From the NCBI GenBank assembly GCA_031460175.1, contig JAVKGW010000010.1, forward strand, positions 15,127-79,126: a stretch of DNA of 64,000 nt, given 5' to 3'. The position numbers and the translations under genes are program-made. Position 1 is the stretch's first letter. The number at the start of each line of letters is the position of its first letter. Below are positions 29,322 to 47,089 of the stretch, in pieces. The stretch comes from Candidatus Sysuimicrobium tengchongense. GTDB taxonomy: Bacteria > Sysuimicrobiota > Sysuimicrobiia > Sysuimicrobiales > Sysuimicrobiaceae. The notes under the pieces were generated by a model that was not told where the DNA came from, did no database searches, and worked only from the letters and a program-made list of their open reading frames with translations.

Positions 29322-29403
29322 GACCGCCGTCAGCAGCCGGCCTTCACTCCCGTGTGAACGATCCGGGCATCCTTGATCGTAGAGGAAAAACGGAGGTGAG
29401 ACG

Positions 29404-29805: not shown

Positions 29806-29920
29806 TCGCCCCCCAGGCGGGCAGCCGTGATCTCCACCGGGCCATGCCGGGGCCCGATCGGATGAGGCCATCCGCCCCTTGACAGGAAAGGGGTCATCGC
29901 TCTAGCCTGCTTTTAGGGCC

Positions 29921-29958
29921 GCGACGCCCACCACAGGGTGGGCGTCGCTTTGCTTTTT
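29921..29958 (+). terminator. rho-independent terminator after the CHAT-S8-spy-like operon
   Basis: Perfect 12-bp GC stem gcgacgcccacc/ggtgggcgtcgc with loop acag, followed by tttgcttttt. Confidence 0.55.
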
Positions 29959-30083
29959 GGGGGGTATAAAACCCTGGTGGCCACGTTCTTCGTCCCCCTA
30001 CGGATTCTGGGCGGGTGCCTCGATCTATACCGCGTACAACCGCTGGATATGGCAGGCCGTGAAAGACGTGGGAGGTGAGGGCG

Positions 30084-31286: not shown

Positions 31287-31289
31287 GGG

Positions 31290-32693
31290 GTGAGGGAGGT
31301 GTCCTGGGTGTGGTGGGTGGTCGTCGCGGCGGCGATCGTGGCTGCCGCGGTGGTGTGGGCGGTGCGCTACACCAAGGTGGGCCCCAACGAGGTCCTGATC
31401 ATCTCCGGCCGACGGCGAACCGTCACCGGCCCGGACGGCCGGCGCAGGGTCGTGGGCTACCGGCTCGTGCACGGGGGCGGCACCTTCGTCTGGCCCATCA
31501 AGGAGAAGGTGCAGCGCATGTCGCTGGAGCTCATGACCCTGGAGGTCCGCACCCCGGAGGTGTACACGGTGAACGCCATCCCCGTGACCGTGGACGGGGT
31601 TGCCCAGGTGAAGATCCGCGGCGACGAGGACAGCATCGCCATCGCCGCGGAGCAGTTCCTCTCCCGCTCCCGGGAGGACGTGATGCGGACCGTCCTACAG
31701 ACCCTGGAGGGCCACATGCGGGCGGTGCTGGGGACCATGACCGTGGAGGACATCTACCGGGGCCGCCAGGAGCTGGCCCGGCGGGTCCGGGAGGCGGCCA
31801 GCGAGGACCTGCACAAGATGGGCATGGAGATCGTGTCCCTCACGATCCGCAACGTGACGGATACCCAGGGCTACCTGGAGGCCCTGGCCCGGCCCCGCAT
31901 CGCCCAGGTGAAGCGGGACGCGGTCAAGGGCGAGGCGGAGGCAGAGAAAGAGGCCCAGCAGGCCCGCTTCCAGGCGGAGACCGCCATCGCCCAGGCCCAG
32001 CGGGACATGGAGTTGAAGAAGGCGGAGTACGAGGCGGAGGTCAAGGCCAAGCGCGCGGAGGCGGACCTGAGCTACGACCTCCACCGCTACCGGATCGCCC
32101 AGCAGGTGAAGGCGGAGGAGATCCAGGTGGGGATCGTGGAGCGGGAGAAGCTTGTGGAGCTAGAGGAGCGGGAGGTGGCGCGCAAGGAGAAGGAACTGCT
32201 GGCCACGGTCCTCAAGCCCGCCCAGGTGGAGCGCCAGCGGACCGAGGTGCTGGCGGAGGCGGAACGCTACCGGCTGGAGGCGGAGGGCCTGGGCCGGGCG
32301 GAGGAGATCAAGGCCCGCGGCGCCGCGGAGGCGGAGGTGATCCGTCTCAAGGGTCTCGCGGAGGCGGAGGCCATGCGCAGGAAGGCGGAGTCCTGGAGCC
32401 AGTACAACGAGGCTGCGGTCATCGAGCTCATCGTGCGGGTGCTGCCCGAGCTGGCCCGGGCGGTCTCCGAGCCCCTCGCCAAGACCGAACGCATCGTGGT
32501 GGTGAACGCGGACGCGGCGGGGTCGGGGGTGTCCCGCGTCCCCGCGGACGTGGCCCGGGTGGTGGCGCAGCTGCCCACCCTCGTGGAGTCCCTCACCGGG
32601 GTGAAGCTGGAGCAGCTGCTGGAGCGCATCCCGAACCTCCGGGACCGGCCGGACCGGTCCCCGGAGTCCGCGCCCACCGCACCGCAGCCGTAG
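31290..32693 (+). CDS. flotillin-like SPFH/band-7 protein (FloT/YuaG-like)
   Basis: N-terminal TM (WVWWVVVAAAIVAAAVVWAV), an SPFH domain (EVLIISGRRR...TLEVRTPEVYTVNAIPVTVDGVAQVKIRGDEDS...) and a long EA-rich flotillin coiled coil (AEAEKEAQQARFQAETAIAQAQRDMELKKAEYEAEVKAKRAEADL...). Confidence 0.85.
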   Translation: MREVSWVWWVVVAAAIVAAAVVWAVRYTKVGPNEVLIISGRRRTVTGPDGRRRVVGYRLVHGGGTFVWPIKEKVQRMSLELMTLEVRTPEVYTVNAIPVTVDGVAQVKIRGDEDSIAIAAEQFLSRSREDVMRTVLQTLEGHMRAVLGTMTVEDIYRGRQELARRVREAASEDLHKMGMEIVSLTIRNVTDTQGYLEALARPRIAQVKRDAVKGEAEAEKEAQQARFQAETAIAQAQRDMELKKAEYEAEVKAKRAEADLSYDLHRYRIAQQVKAEEIQVGIVEREKLVELEEREVARKEKELLATVLKPAQVERQRTEVLAEAERYRLEAEGLGRAEEIKARGAAEAEVIRLKGLAEAEAMRRKAESWSQYNEAAVIELIVRVLPELARAVSEPLAKTERIVVVNADAAGSGVSRVPADVARVVAQLPTLVESLTGVKLEQLLERIPNLRDRPDRSPESAPTAPQP

Positions 32694-32699
32694 GGAGGG

Positions 32700-34160
32700 A
32701 TGGCCGTGGCAACGGTCCGTCAGAGGGTCCGCGAGCAACCCCTTACCACCCCCGAGGACGTCCTGGACCTGTGCGAACGCCGCGGGATCCAGATGGTGGA
32801 CCTGCGGTTCACGGACCTGGTGGGCGCCTGGCAGCACTTCTCCCTGCCCGTGGAGGAGCTGTCGGAGGACCTGTTCACCGACGGCGTGGGCTTCGATGGG
32901 AGCAGCATCCGCGGGTTCCAGGAAATCCACGAGAGCGACATGATCCTGATCCCGGACCCGCGCACCGCCCGGGTGGATCCCATGTGCAAGACGCCCACCC
33001 TGATCCTGGTGTGCGACGTGTACGACCCGGTGACCCGGGAGCGATACAGCCGGGACCCCCGCGGGGTCGCGCAGCGGGCGGAGGAGTACCTGGTCCGCAC
33101 CGGGATCGCCACCACCAGCTACTGGGGGCCGGAGCTGGAATTCTTCGTATTTGACGACGTGCGGTTTGATCAGAATGTGCACTGCGGCTACTACTTCGTG
33201 GACTCCGCGGAGGGCGCGTGGAACACGGGGCGCGACGAGCGGCCCAATCTGGGCTACAAGCCGCGTTACAAGGAGGGCTACTTCCCCGTCCCCCCCACGG
33301 ACAGCCTCCAGGAGTTCCGGTCACAGCTCGTGCGGAAGATGCGGGAGGCCGGGGTGGAGGTAGAGGTCCACCACCACGAGGTGGCCACCGCGGGCCAGTG
33401 CGAGATCGACATGCGGTTTTCCACCCTCACGGACATGGCCGACCGCGTCCAGGTGTACAAGTACCTGGTGAAGACCTTCGCCCGGGAACACCTGAAGACC
33501 GCCACCTTCATGCCCAAGCCCCTCTTCGGGGACAACGGCAGCGGCATGCACACCCACCAGAGCCTGTGGCACGAGGGCCGCAACCTGTTCTACGACCCGC
33601 GCGGCTACGCGCAGCTCAGCGAGCTCGCCCTGTACTACATCGGGGGGCTGCTCAAGCACTCCCCCGCTCTGCTGGCCTTCTGCGCGCCCACCACCAACTC
33701 GTACCGCCGCCTGGTGCCGGGCTACGAGGCACCCGTGAACCTCGTGTACTCCCAGCGGAACCGCAGCGCCGCCATCCGCATCCCCCTGTACTCCACCAAC
33801 CCGAAGTCCAAGCGGATCGAGTACCGGCCGCCCGACCCGAGCTGCAACCCCTACCTGGCCTTCGCGGCCATGCTGATGGCGGGCCTGGACGGCATCCTGA
33901 ACCGCATCGACCCGGGACCGCCCATGGACGTGGACCTGTACGAGCTGCCGCCCGAGGAGGCCAGGCACGTGCGCCAGGTCCCCGGCTCCCTGGAGGAATC
34001 CCTGCGGGCCCTGGAGGAGGACCACGCGTTCCTGCTCCGGGGCGGGGTGTTCACCGAGGACCTGATCGAGACGTGGATCGCGTACAAGCGCAAGCGGGAG
34101 GTGGACTACATCCGCCTGCGGCCGCACCCGTCGGAGTTCTACCTGTACTACGACGTGTGA
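32700..34160 (+). CDS. glnA: glutamine synthetase type I
   Basis: Full-length GS-I hallmarks ([59 protein letters not shown]). ATG at 32700 after GGGAGGG. Confidence 0.92.
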
Positions 34161-34166
34161 ACGTCT

Positions 34167-34853
34167 TCAGGGCCGCGGTACGGGGGTGAGGGCGCCGAGG
34201 GCGAACTGGGAGTACACGAGGTATCCCCCCGCGGCCACCATGCCCAGAGCCCCCACGGTCCGCAGGTGCGGGATCCACCCGCGTGCCCACCGAAGGACCG
34301 CGCCCTTCCCCGCGACCACGGCCATGGAGACCCCGATCAAGACCGCACCCATGCCGAGTCCGTACGCGGTAAAGACCACGAGCCCCTCCACCGGGCCGCC
34401 CGCCGCGAGGGCCTGGGCCACCACCACGAGGAAGAGGGGGAGGGTGCATCCCAGGGAAGCGATCCCGTAGGCTGCCCCGAACAGGACAAACCCTGACTCG
34501 GAGCGGCCCCGGTGGAGCACCTCCTCCACCGGTAGCCGCACCGAGAACGAGGGGCGCACCAACATGGCCACGCCCGCGGCCGCTACCGCAGCACCGATGC
34601 CGACTGCGGCCAGGGGCACGAACCGCAGGAGCGCGTGTCCTGCCGCGGAGAGAAGCCCTCCGAGCGCCGCGAACACCCCGAGCACGCCCACCGTCATCCC
34701 TCCCCCGGCCCGGATGCCCGCGCGCACGTTGCCCGTCGAGCCGTCCTCCCGGCCCACGAAGTACGCGAGGTACGCGGGAAGCAAGGCGAACCCGCAGGGG
34801 TTGAGACAAGCGGCCGCACCGGCCAGGAACGCGAATCCGATGAGCGCATCCAT
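34167..34853 (-). CDS. ccdA: cytochrome c-type biogenesis protein CcdA (DsbD-like thiol-disulfide transporter)
   Basis: Six-TM protein with a CLNPCG motif in TM1 (MDALIGFAFLAGAAACLNPCGFALLPAYLAYF) and a second Cys in TM4 (GIASLGCTLPLFLVVV). ATG at 34853. Confidence 0.85.
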   Translation of the reverse strand: MDALIGFAFLAGAAACLNPCGFALLPAYLAYFVGREDGSTGNVRAGIRAGGGMTVGVLGVFAALGGLLSAAGHALLRFVPLAAVGIGAAVAAAGVAMLVRPSFSVRLPVEEVLHRGRSESGFVLFGAAYGIASLGCTLPLFLVVVAQALAAGGPVEGLVVFTAYGLGMGAVLIGVSMAVVAGKGAVLRWARGWIPHLRTVGALGMVAAGGYLVYSQFALGALTPVPRP

Positions 34854-34862
34854 CGGCGGATC

Positions 34863-35444
34863 TCAGCGTCGGATGCCCACCGCCCCGAGGGCCCGGCGCC
34901 AGGTCTCGTCGGTGGCCGGGTAGACGTCTGTCCACCGGATCACCCCCTGGGGGTCGAGGAGGAATTTCGTGTCGAGGAACCGCACCCGGTACTTCAGGAC
35001 CATCCGATCCCGATCCGGGGCGTAGAACCAGCTTCGGGGGAACCCGTAGCGATCGCGGTAGGCCCGCAGGTCCGCTTCCGTCTCTCTGGGGTCCACGAAC
35101 ACCACCAGCACCCGGAACAGGTCTTCACCCACCTCCTGCTGAAATCGGCGCAGCTGCCGAAGCCCCTCCACGCACGGCAGGCACCAGGTGGCGGTGAAGA
35201 AGAGCAAACCGGGTTTTCCGCCCGCGAGCAGGGCGGCCCGTGTCACCACCCGGCCCGTGATGTCCACCACTCGGAAATCCGGGGCCGTATCGCCGGGGCG
35301 CGTGCCCTCCACGCCGGTGGGGACGATCGCTGTGGCCGTCCGCACCCGCGCCGAATTCCACACCGCCGCCGCGATGAGGACCGCGGCGGCAGCGAGGAGG
35401 GCCGGGAGGGCTCTCGAGTGCCAACGGATTTTTCCTCCGTCCAT
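34863..35444 (-). CDS. membrane-anchored thioredoxin-like thiol:disulfide oxidoreductase (TlpA/ResA family)
   Basis: ATG at 35444 ('cat' at 35442-35444) with [39 protein letters not shown] anchor, then a thioredoxin fold with WCLPC ([14 protein letters not shown]). Its stop is 10 nt before ccdA. Confidence 0.8.
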
Positions 35445-35889
35445 CCCGTTTCTCCTCCGTGGGACGGTTTCACCGCGGAAGCCGGCAGACACCCACGCAC
35501 CCCCATTGCGGAAGGGTCAGGAGGAGCAGAACCCCCCACACGACGACGATCAGCACCGCCACGAGCTCCCCCGCGCCGACAGGCATCGGGTCAACCGCCC
35601 GCCCCGGCCCCAGGACCCAGCTCCGCCAAGCGTGCCACAGGGCTCTCACCGGCTCACCCGCCACAGCCAGAACCGGTCGGGCAAAGCCGACTGTGGGTCC
35701 AACGAACCCAGGACGGCCAGGGTCCCGCCGGCCAGCGCCCTTGGAACGCGCACGAGATACATTCGGAATATCGTATTCTACGTTACTTGCGTATCCCCGG
35801 TGCTGTCAAGCAATCCCAATATTGCCGTCCATGTGGCCCGCTCGCGTGCTACGATACGGAAAGCCGTAACTCGACTGGGGAGGTACCTC

Positions 35890-36960
35890 ATGGCGGACGC
35901 GTTCGATCTCGTCATCCTGGGATCCGGGTCCACCGCATTCGCCGCCGCCCTGCGCGCCCAGGAGCTGGGCAGGACCGTGGCCATGACGGAGTCGCGGACG
36001 CTCGGGGGCACGTGCGTCAACCGCGGATGTCTGCCGAGCAAGAACCTCATCGAGGCCGCGAGGGTTTACCGGGAAGCGGCGCACCCACGTTTTCCCGGTC
36101 TGCGTTCCAGAGGGGTGGACCTGGACTTCGCAACCCTGGTGGCCCAGAAGGACGAGCTCACCGCGGACTACCGGGAGAAGAGGTACCGGGCCATCGTGCG
36201 GGAGTCGGATCGAATCCGGGTGTACGAGGGGCACGCGCGGTTTGCCCCGGATGGAGCCGTGGAGGTGGACGGCCGGAAGTTGCGCGGCCAGCACTACCTG
36301 ATCGCCACCGGCTCCAGGCCGGCTGTCCCACCCGTGGAGGGGCTCGACCGTGTTCCCTTCCTCACCTCGGACCTTTTGACCTCCGGCGAAGCGGAAGAAC
36401 TGCGGGAACTCCCGGGCTCCCTGGTGATTCTGGGGGGCGGCTACATCGCCCTCGAGCTCGGGCAGATGTTCGCCCGGTTCGGCGTGGAGGTCACCCTGCT
36501 CGAACGCAGCCGCCGGGTGTTGCCGGCCTACGAGCCCGAGGTCTCCCTCGCGGTCACGAAGTTCCTTACGGAGGAAGGGGTTCGGGTGGTCACCGAGGTC
36601 ACCCCTCGGACCGTTCGCCAGGTGGGCGATCAGGTGGAGGTCCTGGCAGACCGGGGAGGCCACCCCTTCGCAGTCCGGGCCGAGCGCCTCCTCGTGGCCG
36701 CGGGCCGCCTGCCCAACACGGACGGGCTGGGGCTGGAGCATGTGGGCGTGCGCACGGACGACCGAGGATTCGTGGCCGTGGACGAGTACTTGCGGACCAC
36801 AGCGCCTAACGTGTGGGCGGCGGGCGACGTGATCGGCCGGTACACGGGCGCCCAGATGGCCACCCCGGTAGGCGCCCACGACGGGGTCCTGGTGGCGATG
36901 AACGCGTTCTCGGGCGAGCTTCGCAAGGTGGACCACACCGTCGCACGAACCCTCGCTTGA
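35890..36960 (+). pseudogene. truncated mercuric reductase-like pyridine nucleotide-disulfide oxidoreductase (merA paralogue lacking the C-terminal dimerisation domain and the N-terminal HMA domain)
   Basis: ATG at 35890 after [79 protein letters not shown]... is near-colinear with the full merA at 39779..41440. It ends at TGA 36958-36960 after about 356 aa (...[47 protein letters not shown]), roughly 100 residues short and without the C-terminal Cys-Cys pair. Downstream sequence does not continue the homology. Confidence 0.6.
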
Positions 36961-37123
36961 GGAGGTACAGCACGGGCTCGAACCGTGTGGGGTCCAGAAG
37001 GAGGGTTCCCCTGGGGACGGCGTACGGCACCGCGAGGCGATCTACAGCATTCAGTTCCTCCACGGACAGATGCCGGAAGAGGTTGATCTGGCTTAAGTAC
37101 GTGGCCTTGTCCACCACCGCCAT
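36938..37123 (-). pseudogene. N-terminal fragment of a Crp/Fnr-family regulator (cNMP-binding domain start only)
   Basis: ATG at 37123. [62 protein letters not shown] matches the beginning of a cNMP-binding beta-roll (L.LF..LS.EEL....PRG..L...P..LY.L..G.VR). The ORF then runs into the antisense of the merA-like gene and loses all resemblance. At least 150 residues of a normal Crp are missing. Confidence 0.45.
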
Positions 37124-37144
37124 GATACCGCCTACCTGACCCTT

Positions 37145-38215
37145 TCAGGCGCCCCGCCACGTGGGTGGCGCGGTCACCGGCGCCGGGCAGTTCACCACGA
37201 ACACCTCCCCCTTGGTATCCGGAGTGCCCGGCCACCTCTTGAGGCGCCCAGCGGCCTCCTCCGCCAGGATCTCCCGCTCGGTGCGGAGCACCTTGGGCCG
37301 TGCGCCCTCGTTCCACGTGAACGTGTAGTGGTCCCAGAACGGGCTCCAGATGGCGTCTCCCGGATTCGAGTCGAATACGGAAGGCTGAAAGCCCATGGGT
37401 CCGGGCCCCTGGATGCCGTTCCCGAACACCAGGATCTTGGCCGTGGCCCCCGCCTGGGTCAGCAGCCCCGCCTTCGGGGAGGCGGCCACGCGCATCATGG
37501 GGGCCATGGGGGCCGCGGAGGTGTCCGTGACGATGTACCAGTGGTTGGGGAAGCATTGGTGCAGCTTGAACGTGACCTCCCGCCGGTTCACGTCTGGATC
37601 CTCCAGGAGCTGGCCCTGGCCCAGGTACTGCCTGCGCTGCCGGTCCACCGGGAGCTGCCCGTCCGGCCACCGCACCACGGGGTAGTTCACCACCACCTGG
37701 GTGGCCTCGACTTCCACCTGTCCTGCGCTCTGTGCATCCCGCACCTGCTCCACGGACCGTAGGAGCCGCGGCGAAGTCTTCCACGTCACCCGGTGGATCC
37801 GGTAGGCGGGCGTGAAGTCGTCCCGCCCCGGCACCGTGCTCACCACCGGCAGCTGTCCCGGCGCTCCCTGCGCGAACAGGTAGTAGTCTCCCGTGGCCTC
37901 CCGCCGCAGGGCCAGGGCGAGTTTGGGCACGAACACCAGACCCCGCGCCTGGGCAAAGGCCTGGTCCGACGCGTCGGTCCGGATGTGGTACGCGAGCTTG
38001 CCGTCGAAGAACACCGGGTGAAGCCGGAAGGTCACGAACCCGAACAGGCCCTTCCAGCCCTGGGGCCGCGTGGAGAACCGCAGCACGTCGCCCACGTTCT
38101 TTCGGGTTGCGGGCGCGGCCAGGACTGCAGGCACGATGCGCTCGCCGGCCACAAGTCCGGCCCCCGCCAGTGCGGACCACCGGAGAAACTGCCTTCGGGT
38201 CAACCGCTCTTCCAT
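37145..38215 (-). CDS. Tat-exported hypothetical protein (356 aa)
   Basis: ATG at 38215 ('cat' at 38213-38215) with GGAGGGGGGAGG RBS. Twin-arginine signal MEERLTRRQFLRWSALAGAGLVAGERIVPAVLAAPA. Soluble domain of unknown family (...QCFPNHWYIVTDTSAAPMAPMMRVAASPKAG...). Upstream table residues are GC-rich junk. Confidence 0.6.
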   Translation of the reverse strand: MEERLTRRQFLRWSALAGAGLVAGERIVPAVLAAPATRKNVGDVLRFSTRPQGWKGLFGFVTFRLHPVFFDGKLAYHIRTDASDQAFAQARGLVFVPKLALALRREATGDYYLFAQGAPGQLPVVSTVPGRDDFTPAYRIHRVTWKTSPRLLRSVEQVRDAQSAGQVEVEATQVVVNYPVVRWPDGQLPVDRQRRQYLGQGQLLEDPDVNRREVTFKLHQCFPNHWYIVTDTSAAPMAPMMRVAASPKAGLLTQAGATAKILVFGNGIQGPGPMGFQPSVFDSNPGDAIWSPFWDHYTFTWNEGARPKVLRTEREILAEEAAGRLKRWPGTPDTKGEVFVVNCPAPVTAPPTWRGA

Positions 38216-38253
38216 GCTCCTCCCCCCTCCTCGGTTTGTTCTTCTACCCGCGG

Positions 38254-38439
38254 TCACCGGGAGTCGGCCTCGGGAACACTCCGCCCGTGGGCCGTCCTGA
38301 GGATGCCCATGGCAAAGTGCACCACAGCCCCCAGAGTGCTCGCGGTCAGGCCCTCGGGGAGGAACATAGTCCCGAGCACCGCCATCATGTTCATGCGCGG
38401 CATTCCCATCGCCGGCGCCATGGCCATCAGGACGGTCAT
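38254..38439 (-). CDS. possible small Met-rich membrane protein (about 61 aa)
   Basis: Internal Met of ORF 38254..38559 gives MTVLMAMAPAMGMPRMNMMAVLGTMFLPEGLTASTLGAVVHFAMGILRTAHG, hydrophobic and Met-rich. No clear RBS. It lies 38 nt upstream of the Tat-protein gene. Confidence 0.25.
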   Translation of the reverse strand: MTVLMAMAPAMGMPRMNMMAVLGTMFLPEGLTASTLGAVVHFAMGILRTAHGRSVPEADSR

Positions 38440-38618
38440 CGCCGCCGTGCCCGCCAACCCGCTCCACGCCGCCGGCCCCCACTGCACCGGAGCACCTCCT
38501 CGTTCGGCCTCACCGGCATCGTGGCGCGCCCGCCGCAGTGGGTCTGTAAGCTGCCTCACAGAACCCTGCTGCGGGCGAGGTACCGTGGTTCCAGAATCTG
38601 GTCAGGAGGTGGCTTGCT

Positions 38619-38981
38619 GTGGCAGAGAGCCAGAGGTACGTGGTGTTCGTCCACGCGGGCCCCCAGGAGCTGGCACGGGCCCTGCACGCACTCCTGTACG
38701 CCCGGGAGCTCACCCGCGCCGGGATCCCGGCCAAGATCGTGTTCGACGGGGCCGGCACCGTCTGGCTGCAGCAGTTCAGCGATCCCCAGCACAAATACCA
38801 CGGCTTGTTCCGGGAGGTGCTGGAAGCGGGCCTCGTGGACGCCGCCTGTGCATACTGCGCCCGAGCGTTCAACGTGGTGGACGCGGTGCGGGCCACAGGC
38901 GTCCCTCTGGTAGACACCGCGGACGGCCACCCCAGCCTCGCCAGCTACGTCCAACAGGGCTGGATCCCGCTCACGCTATAA
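38619..38981 (+). CDS. DsrE/DsrF-like family protein (sulfur-relay fold)
   Basis: GTG at 38619, 9 nt after AGGAGG. MAESQRYVVFVHAGPQELARALHALLYARELTRAGIPAKIVFDGAGTVWL... follows the DsrE/DsrF/TusD-like pattern. A Cys pair is present (AACAYCARAF). Confidence 0.7.
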   Translation: MAESQRYVVFVHAGPQELARALHALLYARELTRAGIPAKIVFDGAGTVWLQQFSDPQHKYHGLFREVLEAGLVDAACAYCARAFNVVDAVRATGVPLVDTADGHPSLASYVQQGWIPLTL

Positions 38982-38991
38982 TGACGGGCGG

Positions 38992-39513
38992 GTGTCCGAA
39001 CCGGCAGAGGAGGATGACGTGCAAGGTCCAGGCGCGTACGAGGTGACCTTCGAGGCAGAAGCCCGGGCTCTGGAAGGGATGCGCAAGGTGGCCGTCACGC
39101 GGGTGACCCGCCCAGGGGGGCCCGCGGAGGCCTACACCCTGGTGAGTGACGAAGGACCGCACCTGGACGGGGAGGGAAGTGCCCCCACCCCGCTCACGTA
39201 CTTCGTCGCCGGGGTTGCCTTCTGAATCCTCACCCAGCTCTCGCGGTCCGCGAGAGACCTGAAGGTGCCGGTGGAGGACGCCCGGGCCACGGTCACCGCT
39301 CGTTTCCGCCGGACCGGATCCGTGCTGCAGGAGACGGCCCGGGGAGAGTGCGTGGGCTTCACCATCCACTTGAGCGTCCGCTCTGGCGCCGACCCGGAGG
39401 TGGTGCGGCGCGTGCTCCAGACCGCACACGCCACCTGTTACACAGAGGCCTGCCTGCGCGCGGAGGTCCCCGTCGAGATCCACCACGAGGTGAACGGCGT
39501 GCCCGTTCCTTAG
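38992..39513 (+). CDS. Ohr/OsmC-family peroxiredoxin-like protein interrupted by one in-frame TGA (candidate selenocysteine codon, or nonsense pseudogene)
   Basis: Table ORFs 38992..39225 and 39265..39513 are in the same frame, separated only by TGA at 39223-39225. The joined product is ...VSDEGPHLDGEGSAPTPLTYFVAGVAF[TGA]ILTQLSRSARDLKVPVEDARATVT...CVGFTIHLSVRSGADPEVVRRVLQTAHATCYTEACLRAEVPVEIHHEV. The first half matches the OsmC/Ohr N-terminal motif (G..P.ELL.A.AGYAAC), with TGA at the catalytic-Cys position. The second half carries the AH..C(P)Y resolving-Cys region. Alternative start GTG 39019 after GAGGAGG. Confidence 0.6.
39238..39256 (+). other. bSECIS-like stem-loop 13 nt downstream of the in-frame UGA
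   Basis: CUCUCGCG-GUCC-CGCGAGAG hairpin (39238-39256), 7-8 bp GC-rich stem with apical loop beginning with G. The loop lies about 22 nt after the UGA, within the usual bacterial SECIS spacing window of 16-37 nt. Confidence 0.4.
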
Positions 39514-39778
39514 GAGCCCATCCGGGGACCCTGCCAGCCCGACTCGAGCACCCGCAGTACCTCTTCCATGGCTTCCTCAGCACCACGGGCAAGCGCGTCC
39601 GCGCTCCTCCGCTGCAGTCACCCCGGAGTGCTCCGGGTACTGCGCCGAGTTGGCCGCCGCCTCCACCGCCCGGCCCCGGAGGGCCAGGAGCAGCAACGCC
39701 ACCAGCTTCGCCCCGCAGCACGCTGCGAGAAGCCCGAAAGCTCCCAGTCCCGCAACCCACTCCACGGTCCACCCCTCG

Positions 39779-41440
39779 CTAGCCCGCGCAGCAGCTCAGC
39801 CGGGCCGGATCCTTCTCGAAGGCCTGCGCCGTCAGCTTGAGCCCCTCCACGAGGGTCAGGTACGGGAACACGAGCCGGCTCAAGCGCTGCACCGTGTAGC
39901 CTTCCCGGATGGCCAGCACCGCGGTCTGGATCACCTCCCCGGCTTCCGCGGCCAGCACGGAGGCACCCAGCAGCCGGTCGGTGCTGCGGTCCGCCACCAG
40001 CTTGATCAGCCCGCGCAGGTCGCGGGCCACCCGGGCCCGCGCCAGGTGCTCCAGGCCGAGGACCGCGGTCTTCACCTCGAACCCGCGTTCACGGGCCTGC
40101 GCTTCCGTCCACCCGGCACTGGCGACTTGAGGATCGGTGAAAGTGACCCTCGGGAGGGCTTCCAGGTCCAACGGGCGGTGGTTGCCGTTCAACGCGTTCT
40201 CCGCGGCCACGGTGCCCATGTGGGCCGCCACGTACACGAACATGGGGTCACCCGTGCAGTCCCCCGCGGCGTAGACGGAAGGGTTCGTGGTCTGGGCGTA
40301 CTCGTTGACCCGAACCTCGCCCTTTGGGCCCAGTTCGACACCGGCCTCCTCCAGCCCCAGGCCCGCGGTGTTGGGACGACGTCCGGTGGCCACCAGCAAC
40401 TGCTCGGCTTCCACCACCTCCTCACGCTCGCCTTCCGTGAAGGTCACCCGGTAGCGGCCGCCGACCCGCTCCACCCGGGAGATCCGCACACCCGGCCGGA
40501 CGACCATCCCTTCATCCTCCAGGTAACGCCGCAAGGCTTCCCCGACCTCCGGTTCCTCAAGGGGTACGACCCGTGGGAGGGCCTCCAGCACCGTGACGTG
40601 AGTCCCCGCCCGCAGGTACGTCTGCGCGAGCTCCAGGCCCACCGCGCTCGCGCCGATCACCACCAGGGACCGCGGGAGTTCCTTCAGGTTCACGGCCTCG
40701 TTGCTGGTGAGGTACCCGCTTTCCTCCAGGCCGGGAATCGGGGGTGCCCAGGGTCGGGCTCCCGTGGCCAGCACGATCCGGTGCGGACGGAAGAGGGTCC
40801 CGTCCACCTGCACCGTGCCATCCGCGCGCAACCGAGCCTGCCCCGAGATGTACCGGATCCCCGGGTACGCCTCGAGCACGTCCGTGTACTTCTCGCGGCG
40901 CAGCTCGGTCACCAGCTCGTCCTTGTGGCGCACCACCTGGTGCCAGCGGAGGTTCCCCGCCGTGGTAGAGATCCCCTGGAAGCGGTGCAGGCTCGCCTGG
41001 TGATAGGCCTCCACCGCGCGGATGAGGGCCTTGCTGGGGATGCAGCCGACGTTCACGCAGGTGCCGCCCACCGTCCCGCGCTCCACCAGGACCACCCGGG
41101 CCCCCAGCTCCGCCCCGCGGATGGCAGCCGCAAACCCTGCAGACCCGCCACCCACCACCAGCAGGTCCACCGCCTCCGCCGGCCCGGCGCCACGCTCCTC
41201 CAGGTCCAGGACCCTGCGCTCCCGCACCGCGGCGCGGTAGCCGGCCTCCTGCACCGCCCGCACCAGCACCTCCGGCTGCACGGGGCCCGAGGCGACGACC
41301 CGCGCCCGCCGGGACTCCCACCCCGGTACCTGTACTGCCACCACCCCCGGGACGTGTTCCAGGGCCTCCCGGACGTGCTCCGCACACGCGTCACACGTCA
41401 TGCCTTCTACGTCCAACACGAACTCCGCTCTCGCCTCCAT
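39779..41440 (-). CDS. merA: mercuric reductase MerA with N-terminal HMA (GMTCxxC) domain
   Basis: MEARAEFVLDVEGMTCDACAEHVREALEHVPGVVAVQV (HMA domain), then DLLVVGGGSAGFAAAIRGAELGARVVLVERGTVGGTCVNVGCIPSKALIRAVEAYHQASLHRFQGI... and a C-terminal ...KDPARLSCCAG (vicinal Cys pair). Preferred ATG at 41440 has a GGGAGGG RBS; the table start at 41458 has none. Confidence 0.9.
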   Translation of the reverse strand: MEARAEFVLDVEGMTCDACAEHVREALEHVPGVVAVQVPGWESRRARVVASGPVQPEVLVRAVQEAGYRAAVRERRVLDLEERGAGPAEAVDLLVVGGGSAGFAAAIRGAELGARVVLVERGTVGGTCVNVGCIPSKALIRAVEAYHQASLHRFQGISTTAGNLRWHQVVRHKDELVTELRREKYTDVLEAYPGIRYISGQARLRADGTVQVDGTLFRPHRIVLATGARPWAPPIPGLEESGYLTSNEAVNLKELPRSLVVIGASAVGLELAQTYLRAGTHVTVLEALPRVVPLEEPEVGEALRRYLEDEGMVVRPGVRISRVERVGGRYRVTFTEGEREEVVEAEQLLVATGRRPNTAGLGLEEAGVELGPKGEVRVNEYAQTTNPSVYAAGDCTGDPMFVYVAAHMGTVAAENALNGNHRPLDLEALPRVTFTDPQVASAGWTEAQARERGFEVKTAVLGLEHLARARVARDLRGLIKLVADRSTDRLLGASVLAAEAGEVIQTAVLAIREGYTVQRLSRLVFPYLTLVEGLKLTAQAFEKDPARLSCCAG

Positions 41441-41455
41441 AGAAACCCTCCCGTT

Positions 41456-41490
41456 CATTATATACTAAAATTCGTATAGTTATCTTACCT
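41456..41490 (-). promoter_or_regulatory. AT-rich merA promoter/operator island: -10 TATAAT plus inverted repeat TATAC-N8-GTATA
   Basis: A 35-nt AT-rich patch in an otherwise 70% GC context. The minus strand reads ...AGATAACTATACGAATTTTAGTATATAATGAACGGGAGGGTTTCTATG. A TATAAT sits 16 nt before the merA ATG, with a 5-bp inverted repeat (41461-41465/41474-41478) in the spacer. This layout is MerR-operator-like. Confidence 0.4.
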
Positions 41491-41516
41491 CGTTCGTCGG
41501 ACCCGTCAAGCGAACT

Positions 41517-42443
41517 TCAGTCCTCCACGGGACAGGCCAGGGCCTGCTCCACGAGGTCCGCGAGGCGCGCTCGTGCCAGGGCCACGCACGAATCCGCCGC
41601 CCCGTAGTACAGCCACACCATTCCCTCGCGGGCCAGGGCACCGCACGTGAACACGATGTTGAACCCGTTCCCGACGCGCTCGTACGGAGCCTCCGGGCTG
41701 AGCACCGGGTGCGCACACCGGCTGGTCACACGAGCCGGGTTTTCCAAGTCCAGCAAGGCCACGCCCAGCCGGTAGTTGGGAACACCTGCCACCACCTTCA
41801 CGCCGTGGTAGATCACCAGCCACCCCTCCGGGGTCTCCACGGGCACGGCCCCGGCCCCTACACGGGCCCCGTCCCACCAGGTGCCACCCCGTTCGGGGAG
41901 CACCAGTTGTGGCCTTCCCCAGAAGGCGAGGTCGGGAGACTCCGCGACCCATATGTGCTCCGCACCCCCGGACGAAGGCCGGTGCAGCAGCCACCACCGC
42001 CCACGGATGCGGCGGGGGAAGAGGGCCGCGTCCTTGTTGGGGGGTGGGAGGACGAGCCCCAGACGCCGGACGGAACGGAAGTCCCGGGTGGTGGCCAGCG
42101 CCACCGCGGGTCCGCTGGGACCCACGGCCACGTACGCGATCACCCACTCTCCCAGCTCCTCGACGAAGGTCACCCGGGGGTCCTCACAGCCCAGGGCTTC
42201 GTAGCGCTCGTCGCCCCCGTCCGGGGACAGGAGGGGCTCCGGGTCCACCCTCCAGCTGCCGATCCCGTCCGGGCTTCGGGCCACGTGGAGGCTGGACCGC
42301 CCGTCCGTCCCCTCCACCCGCAGGAGGAGCACCACCTCGCCCTCGACCTCCGCCACCCCGGGGTTGTAGACCCCGAGGGCCGGCACGGGCAGATCTGACG
42401 CACGCAGGATCGGGTTGCCCTCGTACCTCCGGAAGATGTCCAT
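41517..42443 (-). CDS. glycoside hydrolase family 130 (beta-mannoside phosphorylase-like, DUF377)
   Basis: MDIFRRYEGNPILRASDLPVPALGVYNPGVAEVEGEVVLLLRVEG...WGRPQLVLPERGGTWWDGARVGAGAVPVETPEGWLVIYHGV... is the GH130 five-bladed propeller signature. ATG at 42443 with GAGGAGG RBS. Confidence 0.8.
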   Translation of the reverse strand: MDIFRRYEGNPILRASDLPVPALGVYNPGVAEVEGEVVLLLRVEGTDGRSSLHVARSPDGIGSWRVDPEPLLSPDGGDERYEALGCEDPRVTFVEELGEWVIAYVAVGPSGPAVALATTRDFRSVRRLGLVLPPPNKDAALFPRRIRGRWWLLHRPSSGGAEHIWVAESPDLAFWGRPQLVLPERGGTWWDGARVGAGAVPVETPEGWLVIYHGVKVVAGVPNYRLGVALLDLENPARVTSRCAHPVLSPEAPYERVGNGFNIVFTCGALAREGMVWLYYGAADSCVALARARLADLVEQALACPVED

Positions 42444-42655
42444 GTGCCTCCTCTACACGCACGCGTCGTGTTCGGGCCTGACCCTCAGCCGAGGCGCAGC
42501 CACGCCGCAGCCGCCACAGCAGGTCCCTGCGCACCTCCCGCTCCGTACGGACCCGAAGGCGGACGCCGGTGATGGTATCTAGCTTCCATCCCACCGGCGC
42601 TTCCCCCTGGACCGGCGCGCTCTGCCGCCCGCCTTTTGCCCGGAGCGTCCGCGGT

Positions 42656-42805
42656 CTACCCGCGCTCGGTCGCCTCCTCCTTCACCCCGGCCTCGACTTC
42701 CGGGGTGTCCGACTTCTCCCGCTCCCGCCGCTTCTTGAGCGCCTCCTGTTGCCGCTCCCACTCCTCCGCCACGGCCCAGTCAACTCCACCGCAGCACCCG
42801 CACAT
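42656..42805 (-). CDS. unlisted 49-aa Cys-rich micro-ORF: MCGCCGGVDWAVAEEWERQQEALKKRREREKSDTPEVEAGVKEEATERG
   Basis: ATG at 42805 ('cat' at 42803-42805) preceded by AAAGGAGGGAG. Ends at TAG 42656-42658. It is below the 60-aa cutoff of the ORF table. N-terminal CxCC cluster, then a highly charged helix. It lies directly upstream of the BMC-domain gene on the same strand. Confidence 0.35.
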   Translation of the reverse strand: MCGCCGGVDWAVAEEWERQQEALKKRREREKSDTPEVEAGVKEEATERG

Positions 42806-42833
42806 GCTCTCCCTCCTTTCTGTGTCTTCTCAC

Positions 42834-43118
42834 CTACGGATTCCACCACCGTCCACCCGGCAGATCGAACAGGCCGAGGACGCGGTTGTCCACGTTGGGG
42901 ATCAGGGTCGTCGTCAGGCCCTCTGGAGCTCCCGTCTTTGCCGCCTGCAGCGCCCGCTCCACCTCGTCCGTGTCCCCCTCCACCACCAAGGACACCCGGC
43001 CCTCGCCCAGGTACTCCCGCCGCACGAGACGCACGGACGCGGCCTTGACCATGCGGTCGGCCGCCCCCACCACGTCCGCCAGGCAGTCGCACTCCACGAT
43101 TCCCACCGAACGTGCCAT
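42834..43118 (-). CDS. BMC (bacterial microcompartment shell, PduA/EutM/CcmK-type) domain protein, 94 aa
   Basis: ATG at 43118 ('cat' at 43116-43118) with AAAGGAGGAGAG RBS. MARSVGIVECDCLADVVGAADRMVKAASVRLVRREYLGEGRVSLVVEGDTDEVERALQAAKTGAPEGLTTTLIPNVD aligns along its length with the BMC-H consensus (ALGMVETKGL.AAIEAADAMVKAANV.LVGYEKIGSG.VTVIVRGDVGAVKAA.DAG...IPRPH). Confidence 0.6.
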   Translation of the reverse strand: MARSVGIVECDCLADVVGAADRMVKAASVRLVRREYLGEGRVSLVVEGDTDEVERALQAAKTGAPEGLTTTLIPNVDNRVLGLFDLPGGRWWNP

Positions 43119-43146
43119 GGCACTCTCCTCCTTTCCTTTTTGTCCT

Positions 43147-43746
43147 TCAGTGCCGTCCACCCATCATCCCCGACATCATCCCCTGGACCATCTGCCGCAC
43201 GTGCGCGGGAAGCTGCGGCAGGACCGCCTCCGTCAGCTCCATCTCCTTACGCATCATCTCCTCGCCCCGCTCCATGAGGATGCTCATGTGGGTTCCCATC
43301 AGCTTCTTGCGGTCCGTCTCCGACAGCTCTGCCAGCACCTCGAACCGCGTCTTGAACAGCTTCTTCTTGTCCTCGTCGGGAAGCGCCGCCACCGCATCCA
43401 TCATGGCCGCCATCGCCCGCTTGCGCTCCGCCTCGCCCATCTCCGCGAACATCCGCAGGCGCTCGCCCAACATGACCTTTCGCTGCGCGTCGGGCATCCG
43501 GGCCAACCCGGCCGCCATGTCCCGCATGGCGGCCGCGCTCATCATCTCCTGTCCCGGTGCCTGCCGGGCCGACACCGGTGCCTCGGCCTGCGCCGGGCTC
43601 GCCAGGAGGATGAGGGAGACCACCACCACCGCCAGACCCAGCACGACGTCGTTGGTCAGCGCAGGCCCTCCGCCGTAGCCCAAAATCCACGGGGCGACGA
43701 CGAGCCAAGCTCCCAGAACCAGGTTCACCCACGCCCACCCTTTCAT
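43147..43746 (-). CDS. membrane protein with SPW-repeat-like TM pair and Met-rich helical domain (199 aa)
   Basis: ATG at 43746 with GGGAGGTGA RBS. MKGWAWVNLVLGAWLVVAPWILGYGGGPALTNDVVLGLAVVVVSLILLASPA, then a Met/Glu/Lys/Arg-rich region (AAMRDMAAGLARMPDAQRKVMLGERLRMFAEMGEAERKRAMAAMMDAVAALPDEDKKKLFKTRFEVLAELSETDRKKLMGTHM...). It shares an LP-x-E/D...R...E.LA.LS.D.R motif with the two upstream membrane proteins. Confidence 0.5.
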   Translation of the reverse strand: MKGWAWVNLVLGAWLVVAPWILGYGGGPALTNDVVLGLAVVVVSLILLASPAQAEAPVSARQAPGQEMMSAAAMRDMAAGLARMPDAQRKVMLGERLRMFAEMGEAERKRAMAAMMDAVAALPDEDKKKLFKTRFEVLAELSETDRKKLMGTHMSILMERGEEMMRKEMELTEAVLPQLPAHVRQMVQGMMSGMMGGRH

Positions 43747-43767
43747 GCTGCTCACCTCCCTCATCCC

Positions 43768-45174
43768 TCACGGGGTCTCGAACAATACCCGGTCCATGGA
43801 CGACATCACCACCCGCCGCCGGTCCGGTGGCAGCTCCGCGAGCGCCTCCAGTCGCTCGCGGGCCATCAGGTCGCGAACCTCCTCGGGCGCCTGCGCGAGG
43901 GCCTCCTGCATGGCCCGCAGGTAGAGCAGCCGCTGCCGCTCCGGCATCTCTGCGAGGGCAGCCACCACCTTGCCCAGGACCTTCCGACGCACCCCCGGCA
44001 GCTGGGCGGGAAGGACCACCGCCACCATCTGCTGCACCAGGGCCTGGCGCTGGTTCACCTGCGCGATCACCCGGAAGCCCGTCAAGCACGCAAGGCCCCA
44101 CAGGAAGAAGGGGATCCCGACCGCCAGCATGGGGCCCTTGTTCAGCTGACCGAAGTGCCCCTCGATCAGGAGCATCAGCCCGATCACCAGGGGCACGACG
44201 CCCAGGACGTACAGAACTTCCTTGACCCAGGTCTGTGTCACGGTTTCCCGGATGAAGGGCTCGCCGATCGCCTTCTTGTACCCGCCCCGCACCCCCACCA
44301 GCCACACGTAGCCGAAAGCCAGAAAGACCAGTCCGGGCCACGGCCCCCTGTGCTCCATCGCCTCCCGCGCTTCCTCCCAAAATCCCGCGTCGAAGGGCGC
44401 AATGCCCTTAAAGACGTGGTGGAAGCCCAGAGCGATGGCCAGCACGGTTACGGCCAGGAACGTCTCCTTGAGGAAGATGCCCCACCACCCGTACCACTCG
44501 TCCCGCACCAGACGTGCCATCCGCATGAAGAGCTTGGCCATGCCCCGGAGGGGAATCAGGGGGATGAAGCCGAACGCCATGGCGAAGGCGATCCCCCACC
44601 AGTTCCACCGGGGGATCGCCACGGGCACACCTTCGGGCGGGTGGGGCCCGATCAGGTAGCGGATGCCGAACAGTAGCGCCACGGTCCCGCAGCACAGCAC
44701 CCGGCCGTCCCCGAACAGGAGGTCGGGACGGAAGAACATCCGGATGGGGCGACCGATGGCCTGCCGCAGGCTCGGCAGGATGGCAAACAGCGTGAGGTCC
44801 ACCGGGAGTAACACCCACAAGACCACCTTCGCCCAGTACGGCAGACCGGACTGCAGGACGAACCCCATCGCGGGGATGTACGCCATGCTGAGCACGCCGA
44901 GGATGAACAGCGGGGCGCGGTAGGAAAGGTACCGGCGGCCCAGCTTCCGTCCCACGGGCCAAAGCATGATGGTGGTCACCGTAGCCCAGATGGCCACCGC
45001 CACCCCATGCTCCCGGCCACCGACCAACCAGGTTCCCACCAGCACGGCCCACAGGGCCACCAGGGCGGGCAGGAGCTCTTCCCGGAATCCCTCGAGGACC
45101 GGCAGCCCGGGCGGGATCAGGGGAAGACGCGATACTGCAGGGATCCTGGTGGCCACGGCTCCTCGCCTCCACAT
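43768..45174 (-). CDS. large polytopic membrane protein, hypothetical (paralogue B)
   Basis: Preferred ATG at 45174 (MWRRGAVATRIP...); the table start at 45225 is TTG. At least 10 TM helices plus a C-terminal soluble helical module (LAEMPERQRLLYLRAMQEALAQAPEEVRDLMARERLEALAELPPDRRRVVMSSMDRV). A CTTGACA -35 element at 45220-45226 (minus sense) lies just upstream. Confidence 0.5.
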   Translation of the reverse strand: MWRRGAVATRIPAVSRLPLIPPGLPVLEGFREELLPALVALWAVLVGTWLVGGREHGVAVAIWATVTTIMLWPVGRKLGRRYLSYRAPLFILGVLSMAYIPAMGFVLQSGLPYWAKVVLWVLLPVDLTLFAILPSLRQAIGRPIRMFFRPDLLFGDGRVLCCGTVALLFGIRYLIGPHPPEGVPVAIPRWNWWGIAFAMAFGFIPLIPLRGMAKLFMRMARLVRDEWYGWWGIFLKETFLAVTVLAIALGFHHVFKGIAPFDAGFWEEAREAMEHRGPWPGLVFLAFGYVWLVGVRGGYKKAIGEPFIRETVTQTWVKEVLYVLGVVPLVIGLMLLIEGHFGQLNKGPMLAVGIPFFLWGLACLTGFRVIAQVNQRQALVQQMVAVVLPAQLPGVRRKVLGKVVAALAEMPERQRLLYLRAMQEALAQAPEEVRDLMARERLEALAELPPDRRRVVMSSMDRVLFETP

Positions 45175-45249
45175 ATATTCGTTTTGCCGTATTGGTTTCC
45201 TACCATACCGTCCTGCGCGTGTCAAGGGAATCCATGAACCAAACGCCTC

Positions 45250-46293
45250 CTACCGGCCCGGAGGCAGGAGCGCTCCGAGCAGGCTCGCGGCGTGTGCTAG
45301 GTCCGACGCCTTCAGGGCGAAGAAGCCAATGGGCCCGGCCATGACCACGTGGGCCACGAACGGCACGAGCAGGAACCGGGGCATGGGGAACCGGATGGCC
45401 GGCATCATGACGGGCATGGCCACCATCATGCCGGCCCAGATGAACAGGCCCCATGCCACGGCAAGCCACCAGCTACCCCGGCCGAACAGGAGGGTGTAGG
45501 TGATCCCGAACCCGAGACCATTGAGCAGATGCCACCCGTACCCCGCCAGGAGGACCGTACTCCAGGCAACCCCGGCTTCCGCAGCCGTCTTCGGCACCGC
45601 CACAGAGAGGAACTGCCGCACCAGCTCCATGGGAACCCTAGGGAGGCCCCGCGGCTGGGCGTACACGGAGTCCGCGGGGCTGGCCACCGCTCGGTCCATG
45701 GCGCGGAACACAACTCGGCGAATGTCTGCGGACAGGCTGGCCAGGACCTCCAGTTGCACCTGCACCAGCTGCTCGCGGGCGTCGGCGGGCAGCTCTTCCA
45801 GGCCCTTGCGCATCCCCCGCACCACGGCCACGCGCACCGGTTCGGGCAAGCCCGCCAGGGCCGCGAGCCGTTCCTCCAGCATCCGACGGCGCGCCTCCCC
45901 ATCGGTCCTCGCGAGGTGCTTCACCATCTCCGCCACGGTGTTCTCCTGCAGCCTTGGCCCGAGGCCCAGGGCCAGAAGCCCGAACACCCGCGGCATGTCC
46001 ACGGGAAACGCCCGCAGCACGTGGTGCCCGAACAGCCGAACCACGTCCAGGGCCGCGGTGGCCACCGCACCGCCCAAAGCACCCCAGCCCACCAGCTCCA
46101 GCACGCCCGGATCCGCCGCCCGCGCCGCCAGCAAGGCTGCCGCCAGGGCTACCCCGCCGGGCGGCCACCACCACCGGATCGCCCGAGGGGCCGGGAGGTC
46201 CAGGATGCGATCCGCCAGGAGGGTGAGGATCGGGAGGTTCACCGCGACAACCGCCACGAACCAGAGCAGCCAGTGCACCGGGCCCTCCCGCAT
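45250..46293 (-). CDS. polytopic membrane protein, hypothetical (paralogue A)
   Basis: ATG at 46293. TM helices flank an internal soluble module (EERLAALAGLPEPVRVAVVRGMRKGLEELPADAREQLVQVQLEVLASLSADIRRVVFRAMDRAV) homologous to the modules in the two downstream genes. Confidence 0.55.
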   Translation of the reverse strand: MREGPVHWLLWFVAVVAVNLPILTLLADRILDLPAPRAIRWWWPPGGVALAAALLAARAADPGVLELVGWGALGGAVATAALDVVRLFGHHVLRAFPVDMPRVFGLLALGLGPRLQENTVAEMVKHLARTDGEARRRMLEERLAALAGLPEPVRVAVVRGMRKGLEELPADAREQLVQVQLEVLASLSADIRRVVFRAMDRAVASPADSVYAQPRGLPRVPMELVRQFLSVAVPKTAAEAGVAWSTVLLAGYGWHLLNGLGFGITYTLLFGRGSWWLAVAWGLFIWAGMMVAMPVMMPAIRFPMPRFLLVPFVAHVVMAGPIGFFALKASDLAHAASLLGALLPPGR

Positions 46294-46310
46294 GTAATAC
46301 GGTAAGCCGT

Positions 46311-46340
46311 ATATTATGCTCCTGGGGTCACCCTGTCAAG
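46311..46340 (-). promoter_or_regulatory. sigma-70-type promoter for membrane-protein paralogue A (CTTGACA - 17 nt - TAATAT), very short leader
   Basis: Minus strand reads gcaCTTGACAgggtgaccccaggagcaTAATATacggcttaccgtattacATG. The -35 maps to 46334-46340, the -10 to 46311-46316, and the ATG to 46293, so the leader is only 10-12 nt with no SD. Confidence 0.45.
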
Positions 46341-46354
46341 TGCCCAGCGTGGTG

Positions 46355-47089
46355 CTACTCTCTCTGCGTCTGCGGGATTCCCCCGGCCGCCGCCCGGTCC
46401 ACCCACCAGACCAATAGACCGCCCTCCGGGTGTACGCCGCCCGCGGGACAGCTCCACGGGTCCGGCGGTTCCACGAGCGCCCGGCGCACGGCCTCCCGCT
46501 TCTCTGCGCCGGTGACCAACACGTCCACGCGCCGCGCCCGGTTGATCACGGGCAGCGTCAGGGTGAGGCGGACCGGTGGGTCGGCCGTGACGCGCACGGC
46601 TACCACCCACCGCTCGGTCTCCAAAAGTGCGGGAGAACCCGGGAACAGCGAGGCCACGTGTCCGTCCGCACCCATCCCGAGGAGTACGAGGTCGAACCGG
46701 GGAGGGTCACAGAACGCCGCCCGCAGCACCGACTCGTACGCCCGCGCGGCCTCGTCCGGTTGCTCGAAGCGGGTCGGCATGGGGTATACGTTTTCGGGCG
46801 GGATCGGCACGCGCCCGAGGAGCGCCTCGTAGGCCATCCGCGCGTTACTCCGGGGGTCGTCCGGTGGCACGTACCGTTCGTCCCCCCAGAACACCACAAC
46901 CTGCGGCCACGGAATCCTGGGGTCTGCGGCGAGCCGCTCGTACACAGGCCGGGGCGTGCGGCCGCCCGCGAGGGCCACGATGCATCGGCCGCGTTCGGAC
47001 GCGGTCGTCTCGAGGAAGGCGCCAAGCTCCTCCGCCGCCGCCGCGCTGAGGGTTTGCGGGTCCGGGTACATCCGGAGCTCACGCTTCAC
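46355..47089 (-). CDS. pgl: 6-phosphogluconolactonase
   Basis: GTG at 47089 overlaps the zwf stop (GTGA). VKRELRMYPDPQTLSAAAAEELGAFLE...IVALAGGRTPRPVYERLA...VVFWGDERYVPPDDPRSN...VLLGMGADGHVASLFPG is the 6PGL/DevB signature. Upstream table residues are junk. Confidence 0.85.
   Translation of the reverse strand: MKRELRMYPDPQTLSAAAAEELGAFLETTASERGRCIVALAGGRTPRPVYERLAADPRIPWPQVVVFWGDERYVPPDDPRSNARMAYEALLGRVPIPPENVYPMPTRFEQPDEAARAYESVLRAAFCDPPRFDLVLLGMGADGHVASLFPGSPALLETERWVVAVRVTADPPVRLTLTLPVINRARRVDVLVTGAEKREAVRRALVEPPDPWSCPAGGVHPEGGLLVWWVDRAAAGGIPQTQRE

Follow-up and report, generated by a model that had tools for sequence, protein, structure and literature searches.

A family of OsmC-like selenoproteins (COG1765), recognised by selenocysteine (Sec) in a UxxT motif, was defined from the Sargasso Sea metagenome (Zhang, Fomenko and Gladyshev, 2005; PMC1088965) and is still listed in reviews of 2022 and 2026 (PMC9312934; PMC13188914). 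Its members, which are of the YhfA type and are represented by the NCBIfam model NF041052, have the common OsmC fold with Sec of the UxxT motif at the first active-site cysteine, and a SECIS-like hairpin with a G in its small apical loop lies just 3' of the Sec codon; homologues with cysteine at this position also exist. The same arrangement is predicted for the gene described here, which we find to have no essential difference from this family, the present copy being from a thermophilic metagenome-assembled genome (MAG) of 70% GC. The original prediction for this DNA regarded OsmC-like selenoproteins as only sporadically reported, but the name of the family goes back to 2005 (PMC1088965), and Sec is the majority form among the loci compared below.

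Two further groups of proteins provide structural references. The Ohr/OsmC thiol peroxidases (PDB 3eer and 6mjn) share the fold, and their two cysteine columns match Sec69 and Cys140 of the predicted product, whereas the family considered here has its own invariant motifs (DEG, GEGxAPTPL and CxxE) and would use Sec rather than cysteine as the peroxidatic residue. The best PDB match by sequence, nearly full length and with an E-value of 1.6e-18, is an "OsmC-like protein" (3cje) that has cysteine in the Sec column ("GLTGCVMTQI") and a second cysteine in "KKGCFLE", and which thus represents a Cys form, without the "GEC" segment. We know of no function assigned to 3cje.

In the stretch of DNA analysed here (64,000 nucleotides, referred to as the window), a single reading frame on the forward strand extends from position 38992 or 39019 to 39513, and its only interruption is a TGA codon at 39223-39225. 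The two open reading frames found there (38992..39225 and 39265..39513) are the two halves of that frame, as had been proposed for this locus and as translation bears out. On an identical contig (L088) gene callers have divided the same region into a "hypothetical" piece of 68 aa and another of 82-95 aa. The start had been placed at GTG 38992, which we retain as an alternative, but GTG 39019 is probably the true one: a GGAGG at 39009-39013 ends 5 nt before it, and the gene-caller start of the N-terminal piece on contig L088 corresponds to window position 39019. Counted from there, the gene has 164 sense codons, including the UGA as Sec69, followed by a TAG stop, and the tetrapeptide U-I-L-T spans 39223-39234. 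On sequence evidence, 39019..39513 is very probably one intact gene for an OsmC-related selenoprotein in which UGA specifies Sec at the catalytic position (Table 1). This reading draws on the conservation of the TGA among relatives, the covariation of the hairpin and its loss in distant Cys forms, selection on the segment downstream of the TGA, and the match to NF041052.

Table 1. Positions of the predicted selenoprotein gene, its putative recoding elements and two neighbouring genes in the window.
Feature	Position	Strand	Evidence
Predicted OsmC-related selenoprotein gene	39019..39513	+	One frame; Pfam OsmC across the TGA; NF041052 match
In-frame UGA, predicted Sec69; U-I-L-T = UxxT motif	39223..39225	+	TGA in 77/86 loci; alignment with Cys of Ohr and 3cje
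TGT, Cys140, putative second (resolving-type) active-site Cys; motif C-Y-T-E	39436..39438	+	Invariant in 80/80; alignment with Ohr "VCPYS"
Putative bacterial SECIS hairpin	39238..39256	+	Stem 39238-39244 / 39250-39256; apical loop GGUCC 39245-39249
DsrE-like gene, CAYC motif	38619..38981	+	Pfam DsrE; immediately upstream of the OsmC gene
MerA-like gene	39779..41458	-	Pfam

The joined product matches the Pfam OsmC model (PF02566) over residues 60-163, right across the TGA, with an E-value of 2.2e-13 and 50.9 bits against a gathering score of 27.5 (profile positions 1-99 of 100). The match to NF041052, "OsmC-related (seleno)protein", covers the whole profile (1-144 of 144) with 154 bits against a cutoff of 95 (E 2.4e-45). 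Along with the PDB match to 3cje, these two matches settle the fold of the protein. Ohr models, in comparison, reach only 21-25 bits against cutoffs of 89-240 (TIGR03561: 21.4 against 88.85), and when the protein is aligned with 3eer and 6mjn by HMMER, the glutamate of the Ohr motif "NPEQLF" falls on Leu59 of "PTPLTYF", which is invariant in the family. On the HMM score and the missing catalytic glutamate we therefore reject an identity as Ohr and assign the protein by its sequence to the COG1765/NF041052 OsmC-related subfamily. The earlier designation "Ohr/OsmC-like" is accordingly right with respect to the complete OsmC fold and wrong with respect to Ohr. The active-site assignments made at the same time stand: the Sec column aligns with the "GYAAC" cysteine of the Ohr structures as well as with the cysteine of 3cje, so that the TGA does occupy the Ohr peroxidatic position, and the region of the resolving cysteine is intact. 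Among 80 distinct family sequences Cys140 and Glu143 are invariant, and the set formed by Sec/Cys69, Cys140, Glu143, DEG and APTPL is invariant or nearly so.

Relatives were collected by a family-alignment scan of one genome per GTDB species, which confirmed 194 of them; the best 80 loci were kept, and these are part of the 86 loci on which codons were tallied. The aligned codon is TGA in 77 of the 86, TGC in seven and TGT in two, which answers the question, raised with the original prediction, of what orthologues carry at this site. Within the best 80 of the 194 species-representative loci TGA is found in 72, i.e., about 90% of the species representatives in the subfamily would use Sec. The TGA-bearing loci belong to Anaerolineae and other Chloroflexota, Ca. 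Thermoflexus, Armatimonadota, Actinomycetota and a Sysuimicrobiota-like clade. Among 5.8 billion predicted proteins only seven relatives were found, several of which are half-genes. The two closest of these (P0001 and P0002) have cysteine at the position of Sec69, and the third (P0003) starts exactly one codon past it; on its contig that codon is TGA, the rest of the frame is intact, and there is a hairpin resembling that of the window.

The cysteine of P0001 and P0002 would also be expected if the gene were a nonsense pseudogene, i.e., a decaying OsmC-like gene in which a Cys codon has mutated to TGA and which is followed by a hairpin through coincidence, and both the frequency with which a similar hairpin follows window TGAs by chance (about 1.3%) and a neighbouring gene pair that looks truncated could be cited in its favour. 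Yet the TGA occupies the same codon in several phyla, in loci whose proteins share 35-80% amino-acid identity and which can thus not be copies of one mis-assembled sequence. Wherever a locus is complete downstream (76 loci), the TGA is followed by 94-102 open codons, and over this segment dN/dS lies between 0.16 and 0.34 (window against six relatives; 95 codons, gap-free), compared with 0.07-0.14 for the half 5' of the TGA (five pairs; dS is saturated for L012). The segment past the TGA is hence under purifying selection and must be translated, which rules out a nonsense pseudogene. Moreover, the hairpin co-varies and accompanies the TGA, and the copies that do look damaged are not TGA copies but close relatives with a Cys codon. 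We therefore consider decay of the gene highly improbable and effectively refuted by the comparative data.

These close relatives with a Cys codon (TGC) are three loci, L003 (5605-6075), L004 (10001-10470) and L005 (1609-2056), from the metagenomes GCA_900175155.1 and GCA_900175145.1. They keep the SECIS-like hairpin (4-5 of five core pairs) but are shortened downstream of it, L005 by an in-frame TAG after "GFEI" and L003 and L004 by the loss of 8 nt at this same point. Either recent conversion of Sec to Cys with ongoing decay or errors of assembly could account for them.

Another reading would take the gene-caller annotation of two ORFs at face value, with UGA acting as a terminator and the 68-aa and 82-95-aa halves being made separately, the second perhaps from GTG 39265, and assembling into an OsmC fold. 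Such a split would, however, remove the catalytic residue, and the break falls exactly on the Cys column every time. No conserved start codon or ribosome-binding site follows the TGA, the next codon being CTG, ATC or GTG, and the 13 codons between the TGA and GTG 39265, in which the hairpin lies, are conserved at the protein level. With the catalytic residue lost and conserved restart signals lacking, we reject separate halves as barely credible. A reassignment of TGA throughout the genome was rejected as well, since it serves as an ordinary stop in 20 of the 31 long coding ORFs of the window.

As the source is a MAG, the TGA might in principle be a sequencing or assembly error for a true TGC or TGT, a check on which had been advised for this gene. 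But the same codon is present in four other assemblies: window positions 28619..48981 are 100% identical over 20,363 nt to another GenBank MAG contig (JAVKKC010000019.1, GCA_031458615.1), and the same 522-nt gene including the TGA was recovered from Logan assemblies of three other sequencing runs (SRR21619488, SRR27730045 and SRR27730029), none with TGC or TGT. It occurs, furthermore, in 76 other loci. The identical sequence in these assemblies rules out an error, to which we give a negligible probability. The neighbouring DsrE-like protein is on record in 11 contigs, and the nearest species-level relatives, at 78-80% amino-acid identity, include Ca. Tepidifontimicrobium thermophilum (Ca. Sysuimicrobiota, formerly CSP1-3).

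The putative SECIS of the window (CUCUCGC-GGUCC-GCGAGAG) sits within the coding sequence and begins at the 13th nucleotide past the TGA, with 12 nt in between. It would form 7 bp with a 5-nt loop or, alternatively, 8 bp with a GUC triloop; counted from the U of UGA, the two arms of the stem are at nt 16-22 and 28-34 and the loop is at nt 23-27. A hairpin downstream of the TGA had been predicted correctly, although the sequence then given for it contained a superfluous G and a superfluous C. Taken as a single sequence this structure stands out only slightly: of 1000 TGA trinucleotides in the 70% GC window, 13 precede a hairpin of similar kind (at least 7 bp, with a G in the loop), the fold of 71 nt is not significant against shuffled sequences (z = -0.55), and a search of the site against Rfam gave neither a SECIS nor any other family, even with E <= 10. 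The weight of the hairpin therefore comes from the comparison with relatives.

The 45 nt that begin with the TGA can be aligned gap-free among 70 distinct TGA sequences, and RNAalifold predicts a 5-bp helix (nt 18-22 / 28-32) corresponding to the inner pairs of the stem in the window. None of the TGA loci departs from this register, and all five core pairs are present in 72 of the 77 and four in the other five. Pair 18-32 is realised as GC in 51 of the distinct sequences, as UA in nine, CG in six and AU in three, and is broken in one, while pair 19-31 is UA in 42, UG in 26 and AU in one. The three inner pairs are invariant, and this includes the third positions of a Ser (TCG) and an Ala (GCG) codon; such invariance at synonymous positions among proteins of 35-80% identity is a sign that the RNA itself is constrained. 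The covariation score of 0.204 (shuffled mean 0.090) is not reached by any of 500 shuffles and exceeds all slid-partner controls, and is to be read for a region that is also coding and for sequences that are related. The co-variation that was to be looked for in orthologues is thus found, pair 18-32 taking four Watson-Crick types.

Six distant loci with Cys codons form only 0-2 of the five core pairs. The hairpin thus tracks the UGA, as a SECIS should, and its persistence in the three close Cys loci described above fits a recent conversion. In 50 loci the loop reads AGGUU and in ten GGUGC, while GGUCC occurs in the window only; the G at nt 24 is invariant in the 70 distinct TGA sequences, and a GGU triplet is found in the loop of 74 of the 77 TGA loci. 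The clade to which the window belongs is distinguished by a stem of 7-8 bp with a GGUSC loop, compared with the 5-bp core and AGGUU loop of the Anaerolineae majority. All ten other TGA loci of this clade have GGUGC; the GGUCC of the window results from the change of a Cys to a Ser codon (TGC to TCC, "SRCARD" to "SRSARD"), by which a possible closing pair G23-C27 is kept.

The SECIS of Escherichia coli fdhF, to which SelB binds in the mRNA for formate dehydrogenase H, likewise follows the UGA directly within the ORF. Its loop GGUC, as read from the genome, is at nt 22-25 from the U, and the GGUCC loop of the window thus begins 1 nt later. Compared with fdhF, the putative SECIS of the window has a short and perfect stem that lacks the bulged U as well as the long lower helix, and sequence homology between the two is confined to the loop motif. 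The compact and conserved bacterial SECIS of the present family (5-bp core, GGU loop, fixed 19-nt spacing) may be of use in search models.

Taken together, the TGA in 77 of 86 loci, the covarying hairpin, the low dN/dS downstream and the NF041052 score above cutoff support the Sec-encoding UGA and SECIS originally proposed. By analogy with other bacteria, the hairpin in the mRNA would act as a bacterial SECIS when the ribosome reaches the UGA: its GGU-containing apical loop, about 20 nt 3' of the UGA, would recruit SelB-GTP-Sec-tRNA(Sec), and Sec would be inserted instead of termination. We infer that decoding in the Ca. Sysuimicrobium organism is SelB-dependent in this manner. The 164-aa product would then have Sec69 at the position of the OsmC/Ohr peroxidatic cysteine and the invariant Cys140 at the resolving position. 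As in OsmC/Ohr, the selenolate of Sec69 may attack a hydroperoxide or another oxidised substrate; Cys140 would then resolve the selenenic acid so formed into a selenenylsulfide, which a thiol partner would reduce. Both the peroxidase chemistry and the identity of the reductant are proposed here by analogy. The binding of SelB-GTP-Sec-tRNA(Sec) to such hairpins and the catalysis by OsmC/Ohr belong to established knowledge of bacterial Sec decoding and of these enzymes; to our knowledge, peroxidase activity has not been demonstrated for the OsmC-related (NF041052) subfamily.

The genes for Sec synthesis and insertion were searched for in the vicinity. Searches with tblastn and the E. coli proteins (E <= 1e-3) gave no selA, selB or selD in the 64-kb window and about 1.2 Mb of related loci, and ARAGORN gave no tRNA-Sec in the window or in 60 loci; the Sec machinery is hence not linked to the OsmC gene. 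The 64 kb contain no tRNA gene of any kind, and Rfam gave no match at gathering score. A second selenoprotein gene was not found in the 64 kb either, the other TGA-interrupted frames being gene boundaries or antisense frames. The paper describing Sysuimicrobiota makes no mention of selenium, glycine reductase or sel genes (PMC11604079).

Given that Sec machinery is absent from the window and the related loci, one could envisage that the UGA is recoded to a residue other than Sec, either to Cys through a tRNA-Sec-like tRNA and a SelB-type factor, or to Trp or Cys at a low level by near-cognate read-through after the loss of Sec synthesis. Recoding of UGA to residues other than Sec is rare. Unusual tRNA-Sec-like species have indeed been documented in Chloroflexi and Actinobacteria (PMC5389517), and SelB-dependent insertion of Cys would keep the hairpin too. 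On the other hand, a curated selenoprotein model (NF041052) and published Sec assignments (PMC1088965) exist for this family, and Chloroflexi are recorded with selenoproteins (PMC1794560). For Cys, moreover, a TGC codon would be simpler, and TGC or TGT is found in only nine of the 86 loci. We thus regard a non-Sec residue as quite improbable and retain Sec as the residue encoded. This would imply that a hot-spring lineage, probably Ca. Sysuimicrobiota, keeps a Sec machinery and needs selenium.

The redox and thiol genes that had been noted around the locus are largely those found here: the DsrE-like and MerA-like genes are confirmed by Pfam, and a Redoxin/AhpC-TSA gene lies upstream of the OsmC gene. 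In L003-L007 and L013 the DsrE-like gene keeps its place next to the OsmC gene, whereas the Thermoflexus and Anaerolineae loci do not have this arrangement, i.e., its CxxC-bearing product is a constant direct upstream neighbour in the Sysuimicrobiota-like clade only. DsrE-like proteins are themselves a published selenoprotein family (UxxC); Cys takes the place of Sec in the window copy as well as in the orthologues from L003, L005 and L006. The Sec reading does not require the DsrE-like gene, which is context only, but it is tempting to speculate that its product is a candidate thiol partner of the OsmC selenoprotein.

The family, the position of Sec and the SECIS have been known since 2005 and a curated model exists, and the gene in the window is an additional, mis-annotated member; neither a new mechanism nor a new family is revealed by it. 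We found no earlier report of selenoproteins in Ca. Sysuimicrobiota, and on its sequence the gene is likely the first indication of Sec use in this group. A possible but rather doubtful extension would be that, along with this first sign of Sec decoding in the uncultured Ca. Sysuimicrobiota (CSP1-3), the OsmC and DsrE-like genes form a fixed two-gene module in the clade, in which the DsrE-like protein might serve as dedicated reductant or as a sulfur/selenium relay, within a metal/thiol-stress island (MerA, MerR, heavy-metal ATPase, redoxins).

What can be corrected directly is the annotation, in which the two "hypothetical" pieces should be replaced by one selenoprotein gene. The same applies well beyond this locus: with seven matches in 5.8 billion proteins as against 194 genomic loci, the OsmC-related subfamily is nearly invisible in protein databases, and a widespread redox enzyme family is largely missing from them because gene callers split the gene here and in most related TGA loci.

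Some further features of the window were noted. A lone gene for a BMC shell domain (42834-43118, reverse strand), with no other microcompartment genes noted nearby, adjoins a GH130 glycosidase and an SPW-repeat protein (Pfam labels, identical contig L088). A Pyr_redox_2 gene (35890..36960, forward strand) is without its dimerisation domain, and a Crp-like ORF convergent with it (36851..37123, reverse strand) matches only residues 1-92 of the 232 of the Crp in L003. To judge from the sequence, the truncation of both genes seems to go back to a deletion near 36850-36960, and their arrangement is the same on the identical public contig.
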